From the NCBI GenBank assembly GCA_030595835.1, contig JAUVLG010000002.1, positions 19,147 to 83,146 on the forward strand: 64,000 bases of DNA. Direction: 5' to 3'. The position numbers were made by a program, and so were the translations under genes. The number at the start of each line of letters is the position of its first letter. Position 1 is the stretch's first letter. Source of the DNA: Candidatus Eiseniibacteriota bacterium. GTDB taxonomy: Bacteria > Joyebacterota > Joyebacteria > Joyebacterales > Joyebacteraceae. Below, in pieces: positions 21,247 to 51,845 of this stretch. The notes under the pieces were generated by a model. It was not told the DNA's origin, did no database searches, and saw only the letters and a program-made list of their open reading frames with translations.

Positions 21247-21783
21247 GTGGATTGCACGGCGAACAGACGACTGATGGACGAGAAGCTGGATGGGAACATC
21301 ACGGCCGACGACGCGCGCGCCCTCGAGGCGCATCTCTCCGCGTGCTCCTCATGCCGTCGCGAATGGGAAGTCCTCGTCGCGGTGGATCGGGTGCTCGCCG
21401 ATGTTCCACTGGAGCGGGCGCCGGCCGGGTTCGAGCAGTCCGTCGTTGCTGAGATAGTCCGGTGCGTGGAGGCCCGCCGCCGGAGCGAGTCGATCGGCAT
21501 CCCCGTTGCCTGTGGTGTGGCTGCCGTCGCGGCAGGCTACGGCGTGCACCGCGTCGTGAACTGGGAGGCCGCGCGCTCGTTCGTTCGTGGGATAGGCGAG
21601 GCCGCGAACGGAGTACTGGCGCCGCTCGCCGAGCCCCTTGCAAGAACGCCCGACTTCGTGACGACCTGGTCACAGGAGCCGGGCGCTGTTGGTGCCCTGC
21701 TTGCGCTGGCCGTGGCCGCTGTCTTCTTCCTTGGCTTGAGCGCCCTCCGATTCGTCAGACAGAACGCTTTCGAGTGGCACTAG
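21247..21783 (+). CDS. Anti-sigma factor, zf-HC2 type, with C-terminal transmembrane segment
   Basis: GTG start with GGAGG 8 nt upstream; zf-HC2 motif ARALEAHLSACSSCRREWE; C-terminal TM segment AVGALLALAVAAVFFLGLSAL. Confidence 0.65.
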   Translation: MDCTANRRLMDEKLDGNITADDARALEAHLSACSSCRREWEVLVAVDRVLADVPLERAPAGFEQSVVAEIVRCVEARRRSESIGIPVACGVAAVAAGYGVHRVVNWEAARSFVRGIGEAANGVLAPLAEPLARTPDFVTTWSQEPGAVGALLALAVAAVFFLGLSALRFVRQNAFEWH

Positions 21784-21882: not shown

Positions 21883-22326
21883 CTACTCGTCGTCTCCGGA
21901 AACGACCCTGACAGATTCACCGGTTCCGCCTGTCGGCGGGCTGAAGATCACGGGCTCGCCGTTCTGTTTCTCGTCTCCCACGACCTTCCTGCGGATCGCG
22001 TAGTAGATGATAAGGCCGAGCCCGACGAAGAACGGAACGAGCGCGCCGGTCAGGGCGTCGTTCAGCACGCCGAGCGCAATGAAGCCGATGAAGAGCGCGA
22101 TCCCGATGGCCGTGAAGAAGATACCCCAGCCGAGTGTGGCTGTGCCGGAGCTCTTCTTGCCCGCGATCAGCCGGTAGTCGTAGATGCCCTTGTCGAGCGT
22201 TTTCTGGTAGGTCTGCTGCCTGATCTCCTGGGAGCGGTTGATGCCCTTCATGATGAGCATGATCATGAGAACGCCACCGGCTATCGAGACCAGGGCCGTC
22301 AAGAAACTGAAGAAGAACATGTGCAC
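21883..22326 (-). CDS. Hypothetical membrane protein (3 predicted TM segments)
   Basis: ORF trimmed to the GTG/ATG after the RBS GAGGAGG: MFFFSFLTALVSIAGGVLMIMLIMKG...ATLGWGIFFTAIGIALFIGFIALGVL...LVPFFVGLGLIIYYAIRRK; the longer N-terminal extension lacks an RBS. Confidence 0.5.
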   Translation of the reverse strand: MHMFFFSFLTALVSIAGGVLMIMLIMKGINRSQEIRQQTYQKTLDKGIYDYRLIAGKKSSGTATLGWGIFFTAIGIALFIGFIALGVLNDALTGALVPFFVGLGLIIYYAIRRKVVGDEKQNGEPVIFSPPTGGTGESVRVVSGDDE

Positions 22327-22667
22327 GGTCGCCTCCTCGTTGTTTTTCCCACCGCGGTCGTCCCGAAAGGAAAGGGTTGGTTCCCGAACGTCCGGCCCGC
22401 GGCAGAGCCCCATTGTCACTCTCTTTACCGTACGCTATGACACCTCTTCCGATCGGGGTGTTTCAGGGGCGCGAGCGGGACCGGGGATATTCCAGGGCAA
22501 AGGCTGCGGGTTCCCGGGTCTGAAACGCCTCATTGTGGGCAAAAGCGCTTGGATTCTGAGGTCCTTCTGGTAGCATTGTGGGTTGAACCTGGCTGGTCGG
22601 CACGCGGACGCGCGGCCCGAGCAAGTGCCTAGCTGGCCGCCGCCCGTGGGCGGGCGCGGAGGAGCCT

Positions 22668-23279
22668 TTGGCTGGGTCGAACCTGACGCGTGAGTACACG
22701 CCGACGGATGAAGAGCTGATCGCGAGAGTCCTGGCCGGCGACGAGGCGTCCTACGGGACGCTGGTCACCCGGTACCGGGACTACGTGTACACGATCGCCG
22801 TACGGATCGTGGGAAGCGATGAGGACGCGGAAGACGTCGCTCAGGAAGCGTTCGTCCGAGCGTACCGCGCGCTTCCCAGGTTCAGAGGGGACTCCAAGTT
22901 TTCGAGCTGGCTCTACCGCATCGCGACCAACCGCGCGCTCACACATCTGAAGAAGCGCCGGAGGCGAGCGGACACCGTCGACATCGAGTCGGGGTCTCAC
23001 GTGGAGGCCGTTGTCATCGACGACGGCCGCGGCGAGGTAGCGAGTCCGGAGCTTCTGGTCCGGAATGAGGAGTTCAGGCGTGCGGTTCGCGCCGCCGTTC
23101 TCGAACTTCCCGAGCAGTACCGTGTCGTTGTTACGCTCTTCTATCTGGAGGAGAGAAGCTACAAGGAGGTAGTGGCCACACTCGGGATTCCCATGGGAAC
23201 CCTGAAGACGCACCTGCATCGCGCAAGGGCGCTGCTCAGGGACATCCTCACGAAACATCATCTGGAAAGCGGGAGGTAG
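22668..23279 (+). CDS. RNA polymerase ECF-type sigma-70 factor
   Basis: 203 aa; region 2 (YRDYVYTIAVRIVGSDEDAEDVAQEAFVRAYRALPRFRGDSKFSSWLYRIATNRAL) and region 4 (LPEQYRVVVTLFYLEERSYKEVVATLGIPMGTLKTHLHRAR). TTG start as given by the ORF track. Confidence 0.85.
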   Translation: MAGSNLTREYTPTDEELIARVLAGDEASYGTLVTRYRDYVYTIAVRIVGSDEDAEDVAQEAFVRAYRALPRFRGDSKFSSWLYRIATNRALTHLKKRRRRADTVDIESGSHVEAVVIDDGRGEVASPELLVRNEEFRRAVRAAVLELPEQYRVVVTLFYLEERSYKEVVATLGIPMGTLKTHLHRARALLRDILTKHHLESGR

Positions 23280-23281
23280 GT

Positions 23282-24097
23282 TTGGACAAGAGCTGTCTCG
23301 ATACCATACTCGACAGGCGCAGCATCCTGAAGTTCAAGGACGACGATGTCTCGTCCGACGTGCTGGACAAGGTGCTCCACGCGGCGCTCAGAGCATCCGG
23401 ACCGGGCGGAACGCTGAAGGGTGGGTACAGGGGTTCCCAGCCGTTCTCCATCATAGTGGTACGCGACCGCGCCAGGCGCGCGCAGCTCAACGAGCTTCTG
23501 TGCGAGGGCAGAAGGCCCTGCATCGAGAAGGCGCCGGTCTCGCTGGTCTTCTGCGTGGACACGCACCGCATGAACAGGTGGTGTGCCCTCGGCGGGGGCG
23601 CTCCTCACTTCAAGGGCATAGGTGTTCTGTGGGTGGCCCTGAGAGGCGTCTACACGGCAGCGCAGAATGCGGTCCTCGCCGCCGAGTCGCTGGGGCTGGG
23701 TTCGCAGTACATCCAGGAGATAGTCTGGCAGCCTTACACAACGCTCGGCTTCTTCCAGCTGCCGCCGCAGGTGCTCCCAGTCGCCATGCTGATCATTGGT
23801 CACCCCGAGGAGCGTCCACAGCTTGCACCGTCGCTCCCGCTTGAGGCCATCGTCCACAGGGAAGTCTACAGCGATCCGTCCGATGAGGAACTCGTGGAGT
23901 ACTTCGCCGACAAGGAGAAGTACTTCCAGGACTGGCTGGAGGGCCTTCCGGAGGACTCGAAGCTCAAGCGTCACATCGAGTCCGAGGGAGTGACCACTCT
24001 GGCACAGTGGGTCTCGCAACTCACCTACACCGAGAGCTTCTACAAGTGGAGAGACGACGCGGTCCGCACCAACCTGCACCTCTCTGAGCTGGAGTAG
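23282..24097 (+). CDS. Nitroreductase-family flavoprotein
   Basis: 271 aa; LDTILDRRSILKFKDDDV...VLHAALRASGPGG... is a nitroreductase/NADH-oxidase fold N-terminus. It starts 3 nt after the sigma-factor stop, so it is co-transcribed. Confidence 0.8.
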   Translation: MDKSCLDTILDRRSILKFKDDDVSSDVLDKVLHAALRASGPGGTLKGGYRGSQPFSIIVVRDRARRAQLNELLCEGRRPCIEKAPVSLVFCVDTHRMNRWCALGGGAPHFKGIGVLWVALRGVYTAAQNAVLAAESLGLGSQYIQEIVWQPYTTLGFFQLPPQVLPVAMLIIGHPEERPQLAPSLPLEAIVHREVYSDPSDEELVEYFADKEKYFQDWLEGLPEDSKLKRHIESEGVTTLAQWVSQLTYTESFYKWRDDAVRTNLHLSELE

Positions 24098-24163
24098 GCG
24101 GCGTGGCCATCGCGACCGAGGGGCGCATCAGGCTCGCGAGCGGCGCGGGCCCTAGGAGCTAGC

Positions 24164-25388
24164 GTGGAACGCGAGATCCTCGCCCTGATCCTCTCCGTTG
24201 TCCTCATCGTTCTGCTGGTCCGCTTCCGCGTGGATCTGGGTGTTTCCATGCTCGCGGGAGCCGCGACGCTCGCGCTGGTGGTTGGACGCGCCCCGCTCTG
24301 GACGCGCCCCGCTCTGGACGCTTGTCGAGCTGGGGCGCGCCGCGATCGCGCACGACACACTGCTGCTCCTCGCGCGGATTATCACGATCATGGCCCTGAG
24401 CGCGCTGGCGGGGAAGCTCGGCTATCTGGACCGCTTCGCATCGGGCCTCCGTGCACTCATCTCCGACAACCGCATCGTCGTCGCGCTTATCCCCGCGTTC
24501 GGGGGGATGCTCCCGATGCCAGGTGGCACCATGCTGACGGCTCCGATGGTCGAGAGCGCCGTCAGCACCGGGCACGCCACACCGGAACAGAAGCTCTTCG
24601 TCAGCTACTGGTTCCGGCACGTCTGGGAATACATCTGGCCGCTCTACCCGGGCGTGGTAGTGGGCGCGGCGCTGGTCAACAGACCCGTGAGCGACTTCTT
24701 CCTCTACAACTGGCCCATCACGCTGGCGGCTATCGCCTCCGGCGCCTTCTTCGTTCTCCGCAGAGTCGACGCCGGCAGGAACCACCGTTTGAGAGATGGA
24801 GTCATGGGCGGGTGGAAGAACATCCTCATCGGCGTGTGGCCGTTCGGCGTTGTCGTCGCTGGCGTGCTCGTCCTCCAGATCGAGCTGATCCTGGTCATCC
24901 TGGTGGTCATCGCAGTGCTCGTGATCCTGGAGCGCCCCGCCGGCACGCATATCTGGCGGGCGTTCCGGCGCGGGACGGAGTTTCAGATAGTGACGCTGAT
25001 CGTTGGCGTGGCGGCGTACCAGCATCTGCTTGATGCGGTCTCGGTCGTGGACGCGATCCCGCCGCTTCTGCTGAGGATGAGTCTTCCGGAGGTCGTCGTC
25101 ATCGCTGTCGTACCGATGATAATCGGACTCATCACCGGCGTGACTCTGGCCTTCATTGCCGTGAGCTTCCCTCTGCTTATCCCACTAATGGGCGGCCCGG
25201 ACATCAACATGGAGCTCGTCATGCTGGGCTTCGCCTCCGGGTTCGTGGGCTGCCTGCTCTCTCCTGTTCACCTCTGCCTCGTGATCACTCGGGAGTACTT
25301 CGGCGCCAGTTGGGGCGGTATCTACCGCATGCTCCTGCCGGCTTGCGCGGTCATCATGGTCGTTGCGGCGCTCATCGTGCTCCTGTAG
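24164..25388 (+). pseudogene. DUF401-like polytopic membrane protein gene interrupted by a +1 frameshift (16-bp tandem duplication)
   Basis: The N-terminal frame (24164; MEREILALILSVVLIVLLVRFRVDLGVSMLAGAATLALVVGRAPLWT) switches to the 24198 frame (...LVELGRAAIAHDTLLLLARIITIMALSALAGKL... through 25388). Removing one copy of the 16-nt repeat at 24285-24316 restores a single ~400-aa ORF (GRAPLWT|LVELGRAAIAH). Confidence 0.6.
24285..24316 (+). repeat. Perfect 16-bp tandem duplication (gacgcgccccgctctg x2) causing the frameshift
   Basis: Read directly from the sequence: 24285-24300 is identical to 24301-24316. Confidence 0.9.
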
Positions 25389-25503: not shown

Positions 25504-26451
25504 TTGAAGGGGTCAAAGGGTGCTGTCCTGGCCACGATCGCTGCTGGACTGCTGTGGGGGTCGTCGTTTGCCGTCGTCAAGATCGGTCTGCGTTCGATAG
25601 ATCCCTTCTGGTTCGTCTTCTTGCGGTTCGCCGTCGCCTCGGTGCTGGTGGTTCTGTTCAGCGTGCTGACGGGAAGGACCCGCCGGGTCCTCGCGCTCCT
25701 CAGGAATCCGCTGGTCCTGTGGCTGGGTATCACGAACGCCGCCGGTTTCGTGTTCCAGTTCAAGGGGCAGACGATGACGACGGCCGCGAACGCCGCGCTC
25801 CTCATCAATGCAAGTACGCTCTTCGTGGCGATGGCGTCGCGCGTGGTTTTCCGCGAGCGATTCGGTCCGCTCAAGGTGATTGCCGTGCTGGTGGGAATGG
25901 CCGGTGTTTTCCTGGTGACGACCGGGGGCCGTCCATCCGCGGCGACGGGCGCCGCTCTGCACGGCGACCTGCTGGTCCTGACGGCCGCCTTTCTGTGGAC
26001 GTTCTTCATCCTGCTCAACAAGCAGATCGTCGCCGGCCACGCCGTGGACGTGCACGCGCTGACGGCGGCCATGGTCGTCGTGACCACGCTGATCGCACTT
26101 CCCGTCGCGCTTGTCTTCGGGGAAGGCGGCTTCCCCAAGATGTCAGTCCAGTTGTGGACCGTGCCGTACACGGCGGTCTTTTGTTCGATCGCGCCGTTCT
26201 ACCTGTGGACGTGGGGTCTGAAGCGCATTACGGCGACCACGTCTAGCGTCGTGTTGTTGGTTGAGATCGTGTTCGCGCTGGTGTTCGCCGCCGTGTTGCT
26301 CGGGGAGCGGCTCTCCCCGGTCGCGCTCGTGGGCAGCGCCCTGATCCTCGCCGCGGTAGCGCTTGCGTCGAGGGAGAAGGGCGAAGAGGCACCGGTGGGT
26401 CCGGACGTGGTTCCGGAAGAGACCGGTGTTCGGTCTATGGAGAAGCAATGA
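25504..26451 (+). CDS. DMT-superfamily (EamA-like) transporter
   Basis: 315 aa, ten predicted TM segments, two EamA-like halves (LWGSSFAVVKIGL...; LLNKQIVAGHAVD...TWGLKRITATTSSVVLLVEIVFALVFAAVLLGE). Confidence 0.8.
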   Translation: MKGSKGAVLATIAAGLLWGSSFAVVKIGLRSIDPFWFVFLRFAVASVLVVLFSVLTGRTRRVLALLRNPLVLWLGITNAAGFVFQFKGQTMTTAANAALLINASTLFVAMASRVVFRERFGPLKVIAVLVGMAGVFLVTTGGRPSAATGAALHGDLLVLTAAFLWTFFILLNKQIVAGHAVDVHALTAAMVVVTTLIALPVALVFGEGGFPKMSVQLWTVPYTAVFCSIAPFYLWTWGLKRITATTSSVVLLVEIVFALVFAAVLLGERLSPVALVGSALILAAVALASREKGEEAPVGPDVVPEETGVRSMEKQ

Positions 26452-26577
26452 AAGTGAAAAGGAACCGCGCCGTTGATGGGGACGAGGCGATCGGGCTGGA
26501 TCCCGAACACGCAATGGCGGTCGAGTCGAAGGAGAGGCTTGAGGTCGAGCACCCGTAGGTATGTTGGGAGAGTCCCA

Positions 26578-28569
26578 ATGAGCGAGAAGAAGCGGCTCGG
26601 AAAGGAAGCATACGGCGGCGTCCCGGGCGAGAGCTACAGCCCGTACGTCAAACACGACGAGACGATGCGCGAGCTCACGCTGCGCGCCGTTGTCGTAGGC
26701 ATTCTGGTGGGCGTCGTTTTCGGGGCGGCAAACGCCTACATAGGGCTCAAGGTGGGCATCACCGTCGGGGCGTCCATCCCGGCCGCCGTCATCGCGATCG
26801 CGATCTCCAAGTTCTGGCGTGCGACCGTACTGGAGAACAACATGGTCCAGACGGTCGGCTCGGCCGGCGAGTCGCTCGCCGCGGGCGTCATCTTCACGGT
26901 CCCCGCGCTCATCGTGCTCGGATTCATGCCGCAGCTCTCGAAGATCTTCATTCTCTCGGTGGTCGGAGGACTGCTCGGCGTCTTCTTCATGATCCCGCTG
27001 AGAAAGCACCTGATCGTCCGCGAGCACGGCAGGCTCCCGTACCCGGAGGGCACGGCGTGCGCCGAGGTGCTCGTCGCCGGTGATCACGGCGGGACGATGG
27101 TCAAGCGCGTCATGGCCGGCGTCGGCATCGGTGCTCTGTACAAGTTCATCATGGAGGGCATGGAGCTCTGGAGCTACAAGCCGGAGTGGGACATCCGCGG
27201 CATCAAGGGCGCGCGTATCGGTGGTGAGATCACACCGGCCCTTCTCGGTGTGGGCTATGTCATCGGCCCAAGGATCGCGGGCATCATGTTCGCCGGCGGA
27301 GCCATCGGGTGGCTCGTTCTCATCCCCATCATCAAGATGATGGGAAGCGGGCTCTCCGAGCCTCTCTACCCGGCAACGGTTCTCATCAGGGACATGGGAC
27401 CGGCCGCGATATGGAACAACTACATCAGGTACATCGGGGCCGGAGCAGTGGCGTTTGGCGGGCTCGTGACGCTTATCAGGGCCATCCCGACCATGGTGCG
27501 GTCGTTCGGCTCGGGTGTCAGGGAGGCCGCTCGCGACCGCGCGGGCGGCGGCGGAGCCGTCAGGCGCACGGCACTGGATCTGCCGGTCAAGTACGTGATG
27601 GCGGGCGCTCTGGCGCTGGGAGTCCTTTCCTGGCTTCTCCCTCAGATTCCGGTCAACGTGGTCGGCGCGATACTCATAGTGGTCTTCAGCTTCTTCTTCG
27701 TCACGGTCAGCTCAAGCATCGTGGGGTTGGTGGGCAGCACGTCGAACCCGGCCTCGGGAATGACGATAGGTACGCTCCTGGCGACGAGCCTGATCTTCCT
27801 CGGCCTCGGGTGGACCGGGACCGCGGGCATGATCGCCGCCATCTCGGTCGGGGCGGTGGTCTGCATCGCCATCTGCATTGCGAGTGATACGTCGCAGGAT
27901 CTCAAGACCGGGTTCCTGGTAGGCGCGACGCCGCGCCGGCAGCAGTATGGTGAGATCATCGGTGTTCTGTCCTCGGCGCTTGTCATCGGCTGGGTCGTCT
28001 TCTTCCTTCACAGGGTCTACGGGATCGGTTCGGAACAGCTGCCCGCTCCCCAGGCCGTCCTGATGTCGATGGTCGTGAAGGGCGTTCTGACGATGTCGCT
28101 GCCGTGGACGCTGGTCTTCATCGGTGTGTTCATCGCCGCCTGCATCGAGCTCTTGGGAATACCGTCGCTGCCGTTCTCGGTCGGGCTCTATCTTCCGATC
28201 AGGCTCTCGACGCCCATCATGATCGGTGGGATTGTCAGGCAGATGACCGAGCGCATCAAGAACGTGGACATCCGGCACCGCCTGCGGGAGCGGGGAGTGC
28301 TGTACGGGTCGGGTCTCATTGCGGGCGGCGGCGTGATGGGCATTATCGTGGCGGCGCTATACAACTCATCGCTCCAGAGCGAGAAGCTCCTCGCGGCAGG
28401 CGAGCCGGTCGGCGCCGCGACCAGGGTCACGGCGACGTTCTACAACTTCATCAACGTCGGGTACGGCTGGGCCGGGAGCTGGGCGGGCGTCGTTGCGCTC
28501 GTGGCATTCGGAGCTCTGACCATGACGCTCGTGTGGAACATCTGGTCTGGAGACAGGCGCGGGGAGTAG
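26578..28569 (+). CDS. OPT-family oligopeptide transporter
   Basis: Start at the ATG after GGGAGAG: MSEKKRLGKEAYGGVPGESYSPYVKHDETMRELTLRAVVVGILVGVVFGAANAYIGLKVGITVGASIPAAVIAIAI... is the typical OPT N-terminus; about 16 TM segments. Confidence 0.85.
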   Translation: MSEKKRLGKEAYGGVPGESYSPYVKHDETMRELTLRAVVVGILVGVVFGAANAYIGLKVGITVGASIPAAVIAIAISKFWRATVLENNMVQTVGSAGESLAAGVIFTVPALIVLGFMPQLSKIFILSVVGGLLGVFFMIPLRKHLIVREHGRLPYPEGTACAEVLVAGDHGGTMVKRVMAGVGIGALYKFIMEGMELWSYKPEWDIRGIKGARIGGEITPALLGVGYVIGPRIAGIMFAGGAIGWLVLIPIIKMMGSGLSEPLYPATVLIRDMGPAAIWNNYIRYIGAGAVAFGGLVTLIRAIPTMVRSFGSGVREAARDRAGGGGAVRRTALDLPVKYVMAGALALGVLSWLLPQIPVNVVGAILIVVFSFFFVTVSSSIVGLVGSTSNPASGMTIGTLLATSLIFLGLGWTGTAGMIAAISVGAVVCIAICIASDTSQDLKTGFLVGATPRRQQYGEIIGVLSSALVIGWVVFFLHRVYGIGSEQLPAPQAVLMSMVVKGVLTMSLPWTLVFIGVFIAACIELLGIPSLPFSVGLYLPIRLSTPIMIGGIVRQMTERIKNVDIRHRLRERGVLYGSGLIAGGGVMGIIVAALYNSSLQSEKLLAAGEPVGAATRVTATFYNFINVGYGWAGSWAGVVALVAFGALTMTLVWNIWSGDRRGE

Positions 28570-50916: not shown

Positions 50917-51232
50917 AGTTTCGACACGTTGACTTCTGACTTCCGGGTTAGAACAGGGCGAACGCCCTCGAGTACTCCTGCGCGAAGGCGCTCGCACGCG
51001 AGTTGTGTCGAACGGTTCAGCGCCCTGCCTTCGCGCAACGCGCATCAGTGAGTAGTGACACGACTCCCCGCACAACACGCGGCTCGCCCGTGCTCGACAT
51101 GCTTCACGCGACACGTGTTTGAGTGTGCGACCGACGAGTACGTCGACGGACGAACGCGTCGTTGCGAACTCCTTTTGCTCCGCAGCGATATCGACTCGTC
51201 AAGTCGCGCGAGTACCGAGTTGCACTTTTCGC

Positions 51233-51261
51233 TTGACACAAACGTAGTCTGCTTCTACATA
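51233..51261 (+). promoter_or_regulatory. Candidate sigma70-type promoter far upstream of the histone-like gene
   Basis: TTGACA (51233-51238), 17-nt spacer, TACATA (51256-51261); this would give a ~200-nt leader before the ATG at 51476. Confidence 0.3.
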
Positions 51262-51475
51262 TGGCGATGACAGGTGTGTTGCGTACGCAAGCAGTCCCTT
51301 CTCGACTTGAGCGTTGCGTTGCTCGCCGTCGCGGCGGCCCAGGCCGCCGACCGTTGGCCGGATGAAGGCACCGCGATCACGCATGATGATCGCGGGAATG
51401 TCCGGCGGAGGAATCTGAGTCGGCCAACTCCCCTCTGCGAATGGGCGCGGAGTGGGGCAAAGGAGGTGACGGCTG

Positions 51476-51793
51476 ATGGCAGTGAAGAAGAAGCCCGCCA
51501 AGAAGAAGGCGGCCGCGAAGAGGAAGCCGGCAAAGAAGAAGGTCGTGAAGAAGAAGACGACCGCGAAGAGGAAGCCGGCGAAGAAGAAGGTCGTGAAGAA
51601 GAAGACGACCGCGAAGAGGAAGCCGGCGAAGAAGAAGGTCGCGAAGAAGAAGACGACCGCGAAGAGGAAGCCGGCTAAGAAGAAGGTCGTGAAGAAGAAG
51701 ACGACCGCGAAGAGGAAGCCGGCGAAGAAGAAGGTCGTGAAAAAGAAGACGGCCAAGAGGAAGCCGGCCAAGAGGAAGACCAAGAAGAGGTAA
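51476..51793 (+). CDS. Lysine-rich histone H1-like nucleoid-associated repeat protein
   Basis: 105 aa; RBS GGAGGTGA; five near-perfect 16-aa repeats KKKTTAKRKPAKKKVV encoded by 48-bp tandem repeats. Confidence 0.75.
   Translation: MAVKKKPAKKKAAAKRKPAKKKVVKKKTTAKRKPAKKKVVKKKTTAKRKPAKKKVAKKKTTAKRKPAKKKVVKKKTTAKRKPAKKKVVKKKTAKRKPAKRKTKKR
51530..51770 (+). repeat. Five tandem 48-bp coding repeats inside the histone-like gene
   Basis: aagaagaaggtcgtgaagaagaagacgaccgcgaagaggaagccggcg repeated with only 1-2 substitutions per unit. Confidence 0.85.
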
Positions 51794-51845
51794 CGGTTGG
51801 TCTACCTGGCAGAACGAAGAAGCGGAGCGATTACTCGCTCCGCTT

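Follow-up and report, generated by a model that had tools for sequence, protein, structure and literature searches.

A 16-bp tandem duplication shifts the frame of a DUF401 membrane protein gene in an uncultured Candidatus Eisenbacteria genome and is probably a very recent slippage allele

A DUF401 gene (24164-25388, plus strand) in a 64-kb stretch of DNA from an uncultured Candidatus Eisenbacteria genome was found to carry a perfect 16-bp tandem duplication. (The whole of this stretch is called the window, and its numbering is used throughout.) Because 16 is not divisible by three, the duplication shifts the reading frame. It probably represents a real loss-of-function allele of very recent origin, possibly a polymorphic one. 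The original prediction had left the cause open; it can now be narrowed to two possibilities, a real lesion of very recent date or an artefact, while an evolved switch is argued against.

The 16-mer GACGCGCCCCGCTCTG lay at 24285-24300 and was repeated head-to-tail at 24301-24316 (both plus strand), in agreement with the limits first given for it; which of the two is called the "extra" copy is arbitrary. The perfect period-16 self-match covered 39 bp (24283-24321, plus strand; 2.44 copies of TGGACGCGCCCCGCTC, 100% matches, TRF score 78). It was slightly longer than two 16-mers because a 7-bp direct repeat, TGGACGC, bounds the unit. The order of elements in the duplicated stretch was TGGACGC-GCCCCGCTC-TGGACGC-GCCCCGCTC-TGGACGC, i.e. 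an ancestral 23-bp sequence TGGACGC-GCCCCGCTC-TGGACGC to which a further 16-bp unit has been added. In the 64-kb window, no second perfect tandem duplication of a 10-39-bp unit was detected, and ~1.5 × 10^-7 runs of at least 23 consecutive period-P self-matches were expected by chance in 64 kb of the window composition. Structure-driven slippage was ruled out, the DNA-parameter fold of 24268-24336 being no more stable than those of shuffled sequences (z = 0.46). Scanning for promoters and terminators around the DUF401 gene gave nothing informative.

Elsewhere in the window, a tandem array of another kind was seen at 51484-51778 (period 48, 6.2 copies, 92% matches, a 15-bp sub-period, GAAGAAGAAG-rich). 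It was located inside an ORF on the minus strand (51199-51801), whose product is probably a repeat protein, charged and of low complexity.

Deletion of one 16-bp copy yielded a 402-aa ORF, from GTG at 24164 to the stop at 25388, and the two frames were rejoined at ...GRAPLWT/LVELGRAAIAH..., just as had been proposed. An AGGAG Shine-Dalgarno-like motif (24154-24158, plus strand) was read from the sequence 5 nt 5′ of the native GTG, a start that agreed with the MERE... N-termini of orthologues. In the two-copy allele, the native frame (24164-24304, plus strand) encodes residues 1-47 (MEREIL...GRAPLWT), which span predicted helices 1-2, reach into helix 3 and include D24, L25 and G26, which are invariant or near-invariant in the family. 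Out-of-frame read-through after the duplication then runs over 242 Arg/Ala/Gly/Pro-rich codons to the first stop (24305-25033, plus strand). The predicted product from the native start was 289 aa (47 native and 242 out-of-frame residues, stop at 25033), with no hydrophobic segment beyond its native part. The 3′ part of the gene (residues 41-402 and the stop) lies in the shifted frame at 24300-25388 (plus strand), and this downstream frame is open from 24198. As read from the nucleotide sequence, residues 48-402 of the transporter would no longer be made in register, and the product of the two-copy allele is predicted to be non-functional.

The repaired ORF matched PF04165 (DUF401) at 177.6 bits (cutoff 24) in a single stretch, with residues 6-400 aligned on profile positions 5-390 of 393. 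With a score above the gathering score and most of the profile covered, the repaired product was a full-length DUF401 protein, as its DUF401-like character had implied. Its score with TIGR00529 (AF0261), 228.7 bits, fell below the curated NCBIfam cutoff of 378.4 bits, so that it belongs to the DUF401 family but not to the TIGR00529 equivalog. A search of a 5.8-billion-protein collection recovered 735 homologues of the repaired protein, the best of which were 400-402 aa long, covered 100% of the query and came mostly from Candidatus Eisenbacteria MAGs. The repaired ORF was 97% identical to one orthologue (P0001) and 98% identical, with 8 differences, to two others (P0123 and P0127). The invariant DUF401 motifs GGLLPMPGG, YWFRHVWEY and LSPVHLCL were common to the repaired ORF and 62 homologues, and some homologues carried precomputed Pfam matches to GntP_permease or CitMHS. 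Among the titles and abstract openings retrieved for DUF401, a term that also catches DUF401x names, no title on the family was found; judged by these, the hits seemed to concern other subjects or DUF401x families.

The structure modelled was that of the intact orthologue P0001 (the one 97% identical), not of the frameshifted window gene. Its AlphaFold2 model (pLDDT 90.1, pTM 0.88) was all-helical with ~20 helices, bearing out the earlier view of a membrane protein with many transmembrane segments. A sequence-profile search of the PDB matched no solved structure. Foldseek aligned the model with the TRAP transporters SiaQM/IseQM, ArsB, VcINDY and NaS1 at TM-scores of 0.66-0.76 (chains 7qha_B, 9pym_A, 10tp_A and 6okz_B; E = 5.5e-09 to 3.6e-07), i.e. 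with the fold shared by the ion-transporter superfamily (TRAP-M, DASS, ArsB, AbgT). From this placement of the model with elevator carriers, the intact gene most likely encodes a putative elevator-type secondary transporter of that superfamily.

Comparison with orthologues, a check proposed together with the original prediction, showed the single-copy, in-frame state at all 71 related loci covering the site; none was gapped or out of frame. The junction peptide ...VVGRAPLWT/LVELGRAAIAH... stood unchanged in the closest orthologues and was conserved throughout the clade. Aligned with the DNA of loci L001 and L002, the window showed a clean 16-bp insertion, and L004 and L005 contained the exact inferred 23-bp single-copy sequence, unchanged. 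The nearest and near-conspecific relatives, L164 (GCA_025782585.1) and L165 (GCA_048635015.1), were 97.3% and 96.9% identical in nucleotides to the repaired gene, and both were single-copy and intact. Relative to each of these six loci the 16-bp insertion disrupted the reading frame, as in a frameshift pseudogene or null allele. A degenerate 37-nt pattern describing the two-copy state had no match in either of the DNA collections scanned, the GTDB species-representative genomes and the JGI metagenomes (0 in each). In L164 and L001, the first copy read GGGACGT instead of TGGACGC.

These comparisons bear on whether the locus could be a reversible on/off (phase-variation-like) switch, the 16-mer toggling between one and two copies and the transporter being on or off in subpopulations. 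Tandem duplications revert through the same slippage that made them, so reversion is possible in principle; besides, the site is early in the coding region, where a duplication would produce a clean null, and the rest of the gene is fully preserved. However, phase-variable loci vary in repeat copy number among relatives, and here it was constant, with variation at 0 of 71 related loci and the two-copy pattern absent from both DNA collections. The locus has merely two copies of a 16-bp unit, whereas contingency loci have many copies of 1-7-bp units, and the DNA structure at the site was ordinary (z = 0.46). Nor was the 7-bp microhomology conserved, as the GGGACGT of L164 and L001 shows: the TGGACGC repeat is an accident of codon choice, Gly-Arg being written as GGA CGC and Trp-Thr as TGG ACG C. 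A switch of this kind is thus very improbable.

Pairwise dN/dS values of the repaired gene against six orthologues were 0.09-0.13, not above the 0.07-0.23 spanned by the flanking genes (sigma factor, nitroreductase and EamA). Substitutions unique to the window, scored at sites where seven relatives agreed among themselves, numbered 7 synonymous and 1 nonsynonymous (S204L) in the DUF401 gene; the probability of at most one nonsynonymous change out of 8 under neutrality was 6e-4. No further stop or indel was present in the repaired gene, which showed neither the relaxed selection nor the additional lesions of an older pseudogene. The excess of synonymous changes, the low dN/dS and the lack of another lesion indicated purifying selection over essentially the whole terminal branch, and hence that the frameshift either arose very recently or is not real.

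The lack of decay would be expected equally of an artefact and of a very young mutation. If it were an artefact, the organism would have an intact single-copy gene, the extra 16 bp having come from sequencing, amplification or assembly/polishing, by in-vitro polymerase slippage (during library preparation or whole-genome amplification) or during consensus building. This is consistent with the clear purifying selection on the gene up to the present, with the finding of the two-copy allele in no other sequence examined and with the intactness of every relative, even at 97% nucleotide identity. On the other hand, in-vitro 16-bp duplications rarely reach the consensus. A de Bruijn loop needs a repeat of at least k-1 bases; the ancestral repeat, at 7 bp, falls well short of assembler k-mer lengths and would not be expected to form such a loop, which favours a real allele. 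In addition, five further pairs of overlapping ORFs in the window, flagged by a GC3-based ORF map, revealed no other frameshift: by Pfam, all ten ORFs were separate, complete genes, indicating that the assembly is not indel-ridden. An artefact is thus possible but rather unlikely, and a genuine, recent duplication is the preferred reading. A minority variant can become fixed in a MAG consensus; in the population sampled, the two-copy allele may have gone to fixation or be no more than a polymorphism.

In the gene call of the public source contig (NCBI, 85,782 bp), the locus is given as a 382-aa ORF, P0132 (24240-25388, plus strand), starting at GTG 24240. Its first 20 residues, MFPCSREPRRSRWWLDAPRS, were out-of-frame sequence, i.e. 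a false N-terminus. The public call passes as an intact DUF401 protein, and the lesion is thereby hidden from routine gene calling. P0132 sits inside a 90% identity protein cluster, and no other member of that cluster had an N-terminus of this aberrant type. A 15-billion-protein collection contained the nitroreductase, EamA and 382-aa products from that contig. Neither the exact repaired 402-aa sequence nor the 289-aa wrong-frame product was present in it.

The same call raises the question of residual function, either by low-level +1 ribosomal frameshifting in the duplicated segment, which would give a full-length protein lengthened by 5 inserted residues, or by initiation in the downstream frame at GTG 24240 (P0132) or ATG 24390 (repaired codon 71), which would give an altered or truncated transporter. 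The downstream frame is indeed open far enough for a gene caller to have produced its 382-aa call, and CGC-CCC-G, present in the duplicated segment, offers a proline codon context at which +1 slippage is possible in principle. However, the strong Shine-Dalgarno motif precedes GTG 24164 and not the alternative starts. Initiation at the latter would also sacrifice the invariant or near-invariant N-terminal residues D24, L25 and G26; P0132 begins with out-of-frame residues, and in a hydropathy scan the downstream-frame product lost the first hydrophobic segment. Every orthologue was single-frame (400-402 aa), indicating that no recoding is conserved, whereas programmed ribosomal frameshifting would call for a conserved two-frame layout with a slippery site and a stimulator; local structure was not significant (DNA-parameter fold z = 0.46). 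We therefore regard a locus that still functions in either way as extremely unlikely.

The DUF401 gene belongs to a cluster conserved in many relatives. Its operon-like setting with ECF sigma factor and nitroreductase genes, noted in the original prediction, was recovered as a same-strand, tightly spaced and syntenic cluster, ECF sigma-nitroreductase-DUF401-EamA. An ECF-type sigma-70 factor gene comes first (22668-23279, plus strand), followed by a nitroreductase-family gene (23282-24097, plus strand) ending 66 bp 5′ of the DUF401 start; an EamA/DMT transporter gene (25504-26451, plus strand) lies 3′ of DUF401, and an OPT transporter gene (26578-28569) is found further on, on the same strand as the cluster. 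Close to the ECF sigma gene, on its upstream side, were a gene for a zf-HC2 anti-sigma-like protein and a divergent one for a DUF6249 membrane protein (21247-21783 and 21883-22419, minus strand), and the same arrangement occurred in L002 and L165. A Logan contig (L163), from an independent assembly of the public run SRR18936872, corresponded to window positions 21917-23498 with 99.4% nucleotide identity, differing by 8 mismatches and 1 gap over 1.58 kb; its sigma factor product was identical to that of the window, and the contig ended inside the nitroreductase gene, before DUF401.

In at least 15 related loci, a gene for a 358-aa TPR protein lies between EamA and OPT. In the window, ~970 bp of this gene were deleted in frame, leaving a remnant of 36 codons, MKVKRNRAVDGDEAIGLDPEHAMAVESKERLEVEHP (26448-26558, plus strand; junction at ~26452-26479), of which the last ~26 codons still aligned to the C-terminus of the 358-aa protein. 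In L164, the start of the TPR gene was still present. The deletion is a second lineage-specific lesion in the DUF401 cluster, and its proximity counts toward a real allele rather than an assembler artefact at the 16-mer. Identity to L164 was 97-99% over the sigma factor, nitroreductase and most of the DUF401 gene but 83-88% in the 3′ half of EamA (25900-26451), where that gene adjoins the TPR deletion. The EamA gene had 21 synonymous and 15 nonsynonymous window-unique changes, compared with 3-8 in the neighbouring genes. The identity drop beside the deletion suggests a recombination tract.

If the DUF401 lesion is real, its position adjoining the TPR loss hints at strain-level remodelling of the cluster. 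A stronger version, in which the two-copy allele would be a real, recurrent and reversible null switching off a conserved transporter, deserves hardly any credence. Were it true, the null might serve, for example, as an escape from a toxic substrate or from a phage using the transporter as receptor, and together with the TPR deletion it would amount to ongoing adaptive remodelling of an ECF-sigma-controlled envelope/transport cluster in uncultured Eisenbacteria.

For the preferred reading, a genuine and very recent duplication, the simplest route would be slipped-strand mispairing between the two TGGACGC copies. Judging from the anatomy of the site, the ancestral TGGACGC-GCCCCGCTC-TGGACGC, in which the 7-bp direct repeat recurs at a 16-bp period, would have been the slippage substrate. 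The nascent strand would have slipped back by one period during replication, so that 16 bp were copied twice, and the extra 16 bp would have caused a +1 frameshift after codon 47. Since the allele is a tandem duplication, the same slippage can revert it.

The biological weight of the finding is small: it adds another frameshifted gene in a MAG, made by a known mechanism. If the lesion is real, it is a very young null of a gene otherwise under strong purifying selection. Its value for annotation lies in the false N-terminus of the public call, with which automated pipelines would count the transporter as present.

At the protein level, the gene resembled two groups of known proteins. Like the DUF401/TIGR00529 "AF0261" integral membrane proteins, the repaired product matched the whole PF04165 profile, but the window copy differs from them by its frameshift. 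The elevator carriers of the ion-transporter superfamily (SiaQM, IseQM, ArsB, DASS/VcINDY and SLC13) were alike in fold, but at a sequence identity of merely 11-17%. At the DNA level, the duplication shared with simple-sequence contingency loci a repeat early in the coding sequence whose copy number sets the frame, but it differed from them in having 2 copies of a 16-bp unit, no polymorphism among relatives and a seed that is not conserved. A further likeness was to frameshift nulls caused by short tandem duplications at microhomology, which have the same perfect head-to-tail copy, the same kind of border (here the 7-bp repeat) and single-copy relatives. Slipped-strand mispairing has its textbook example in the CTGG hotspot of lacI, and the feature described here is an ordinary slippage duplication made by that textbook mechanism, not a new kind of genetic element. 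It differs from the known microhomology-duplication nulls not in mechanism but in its host, an uncultured Eisenbacteria MAG, and in the gene affected.
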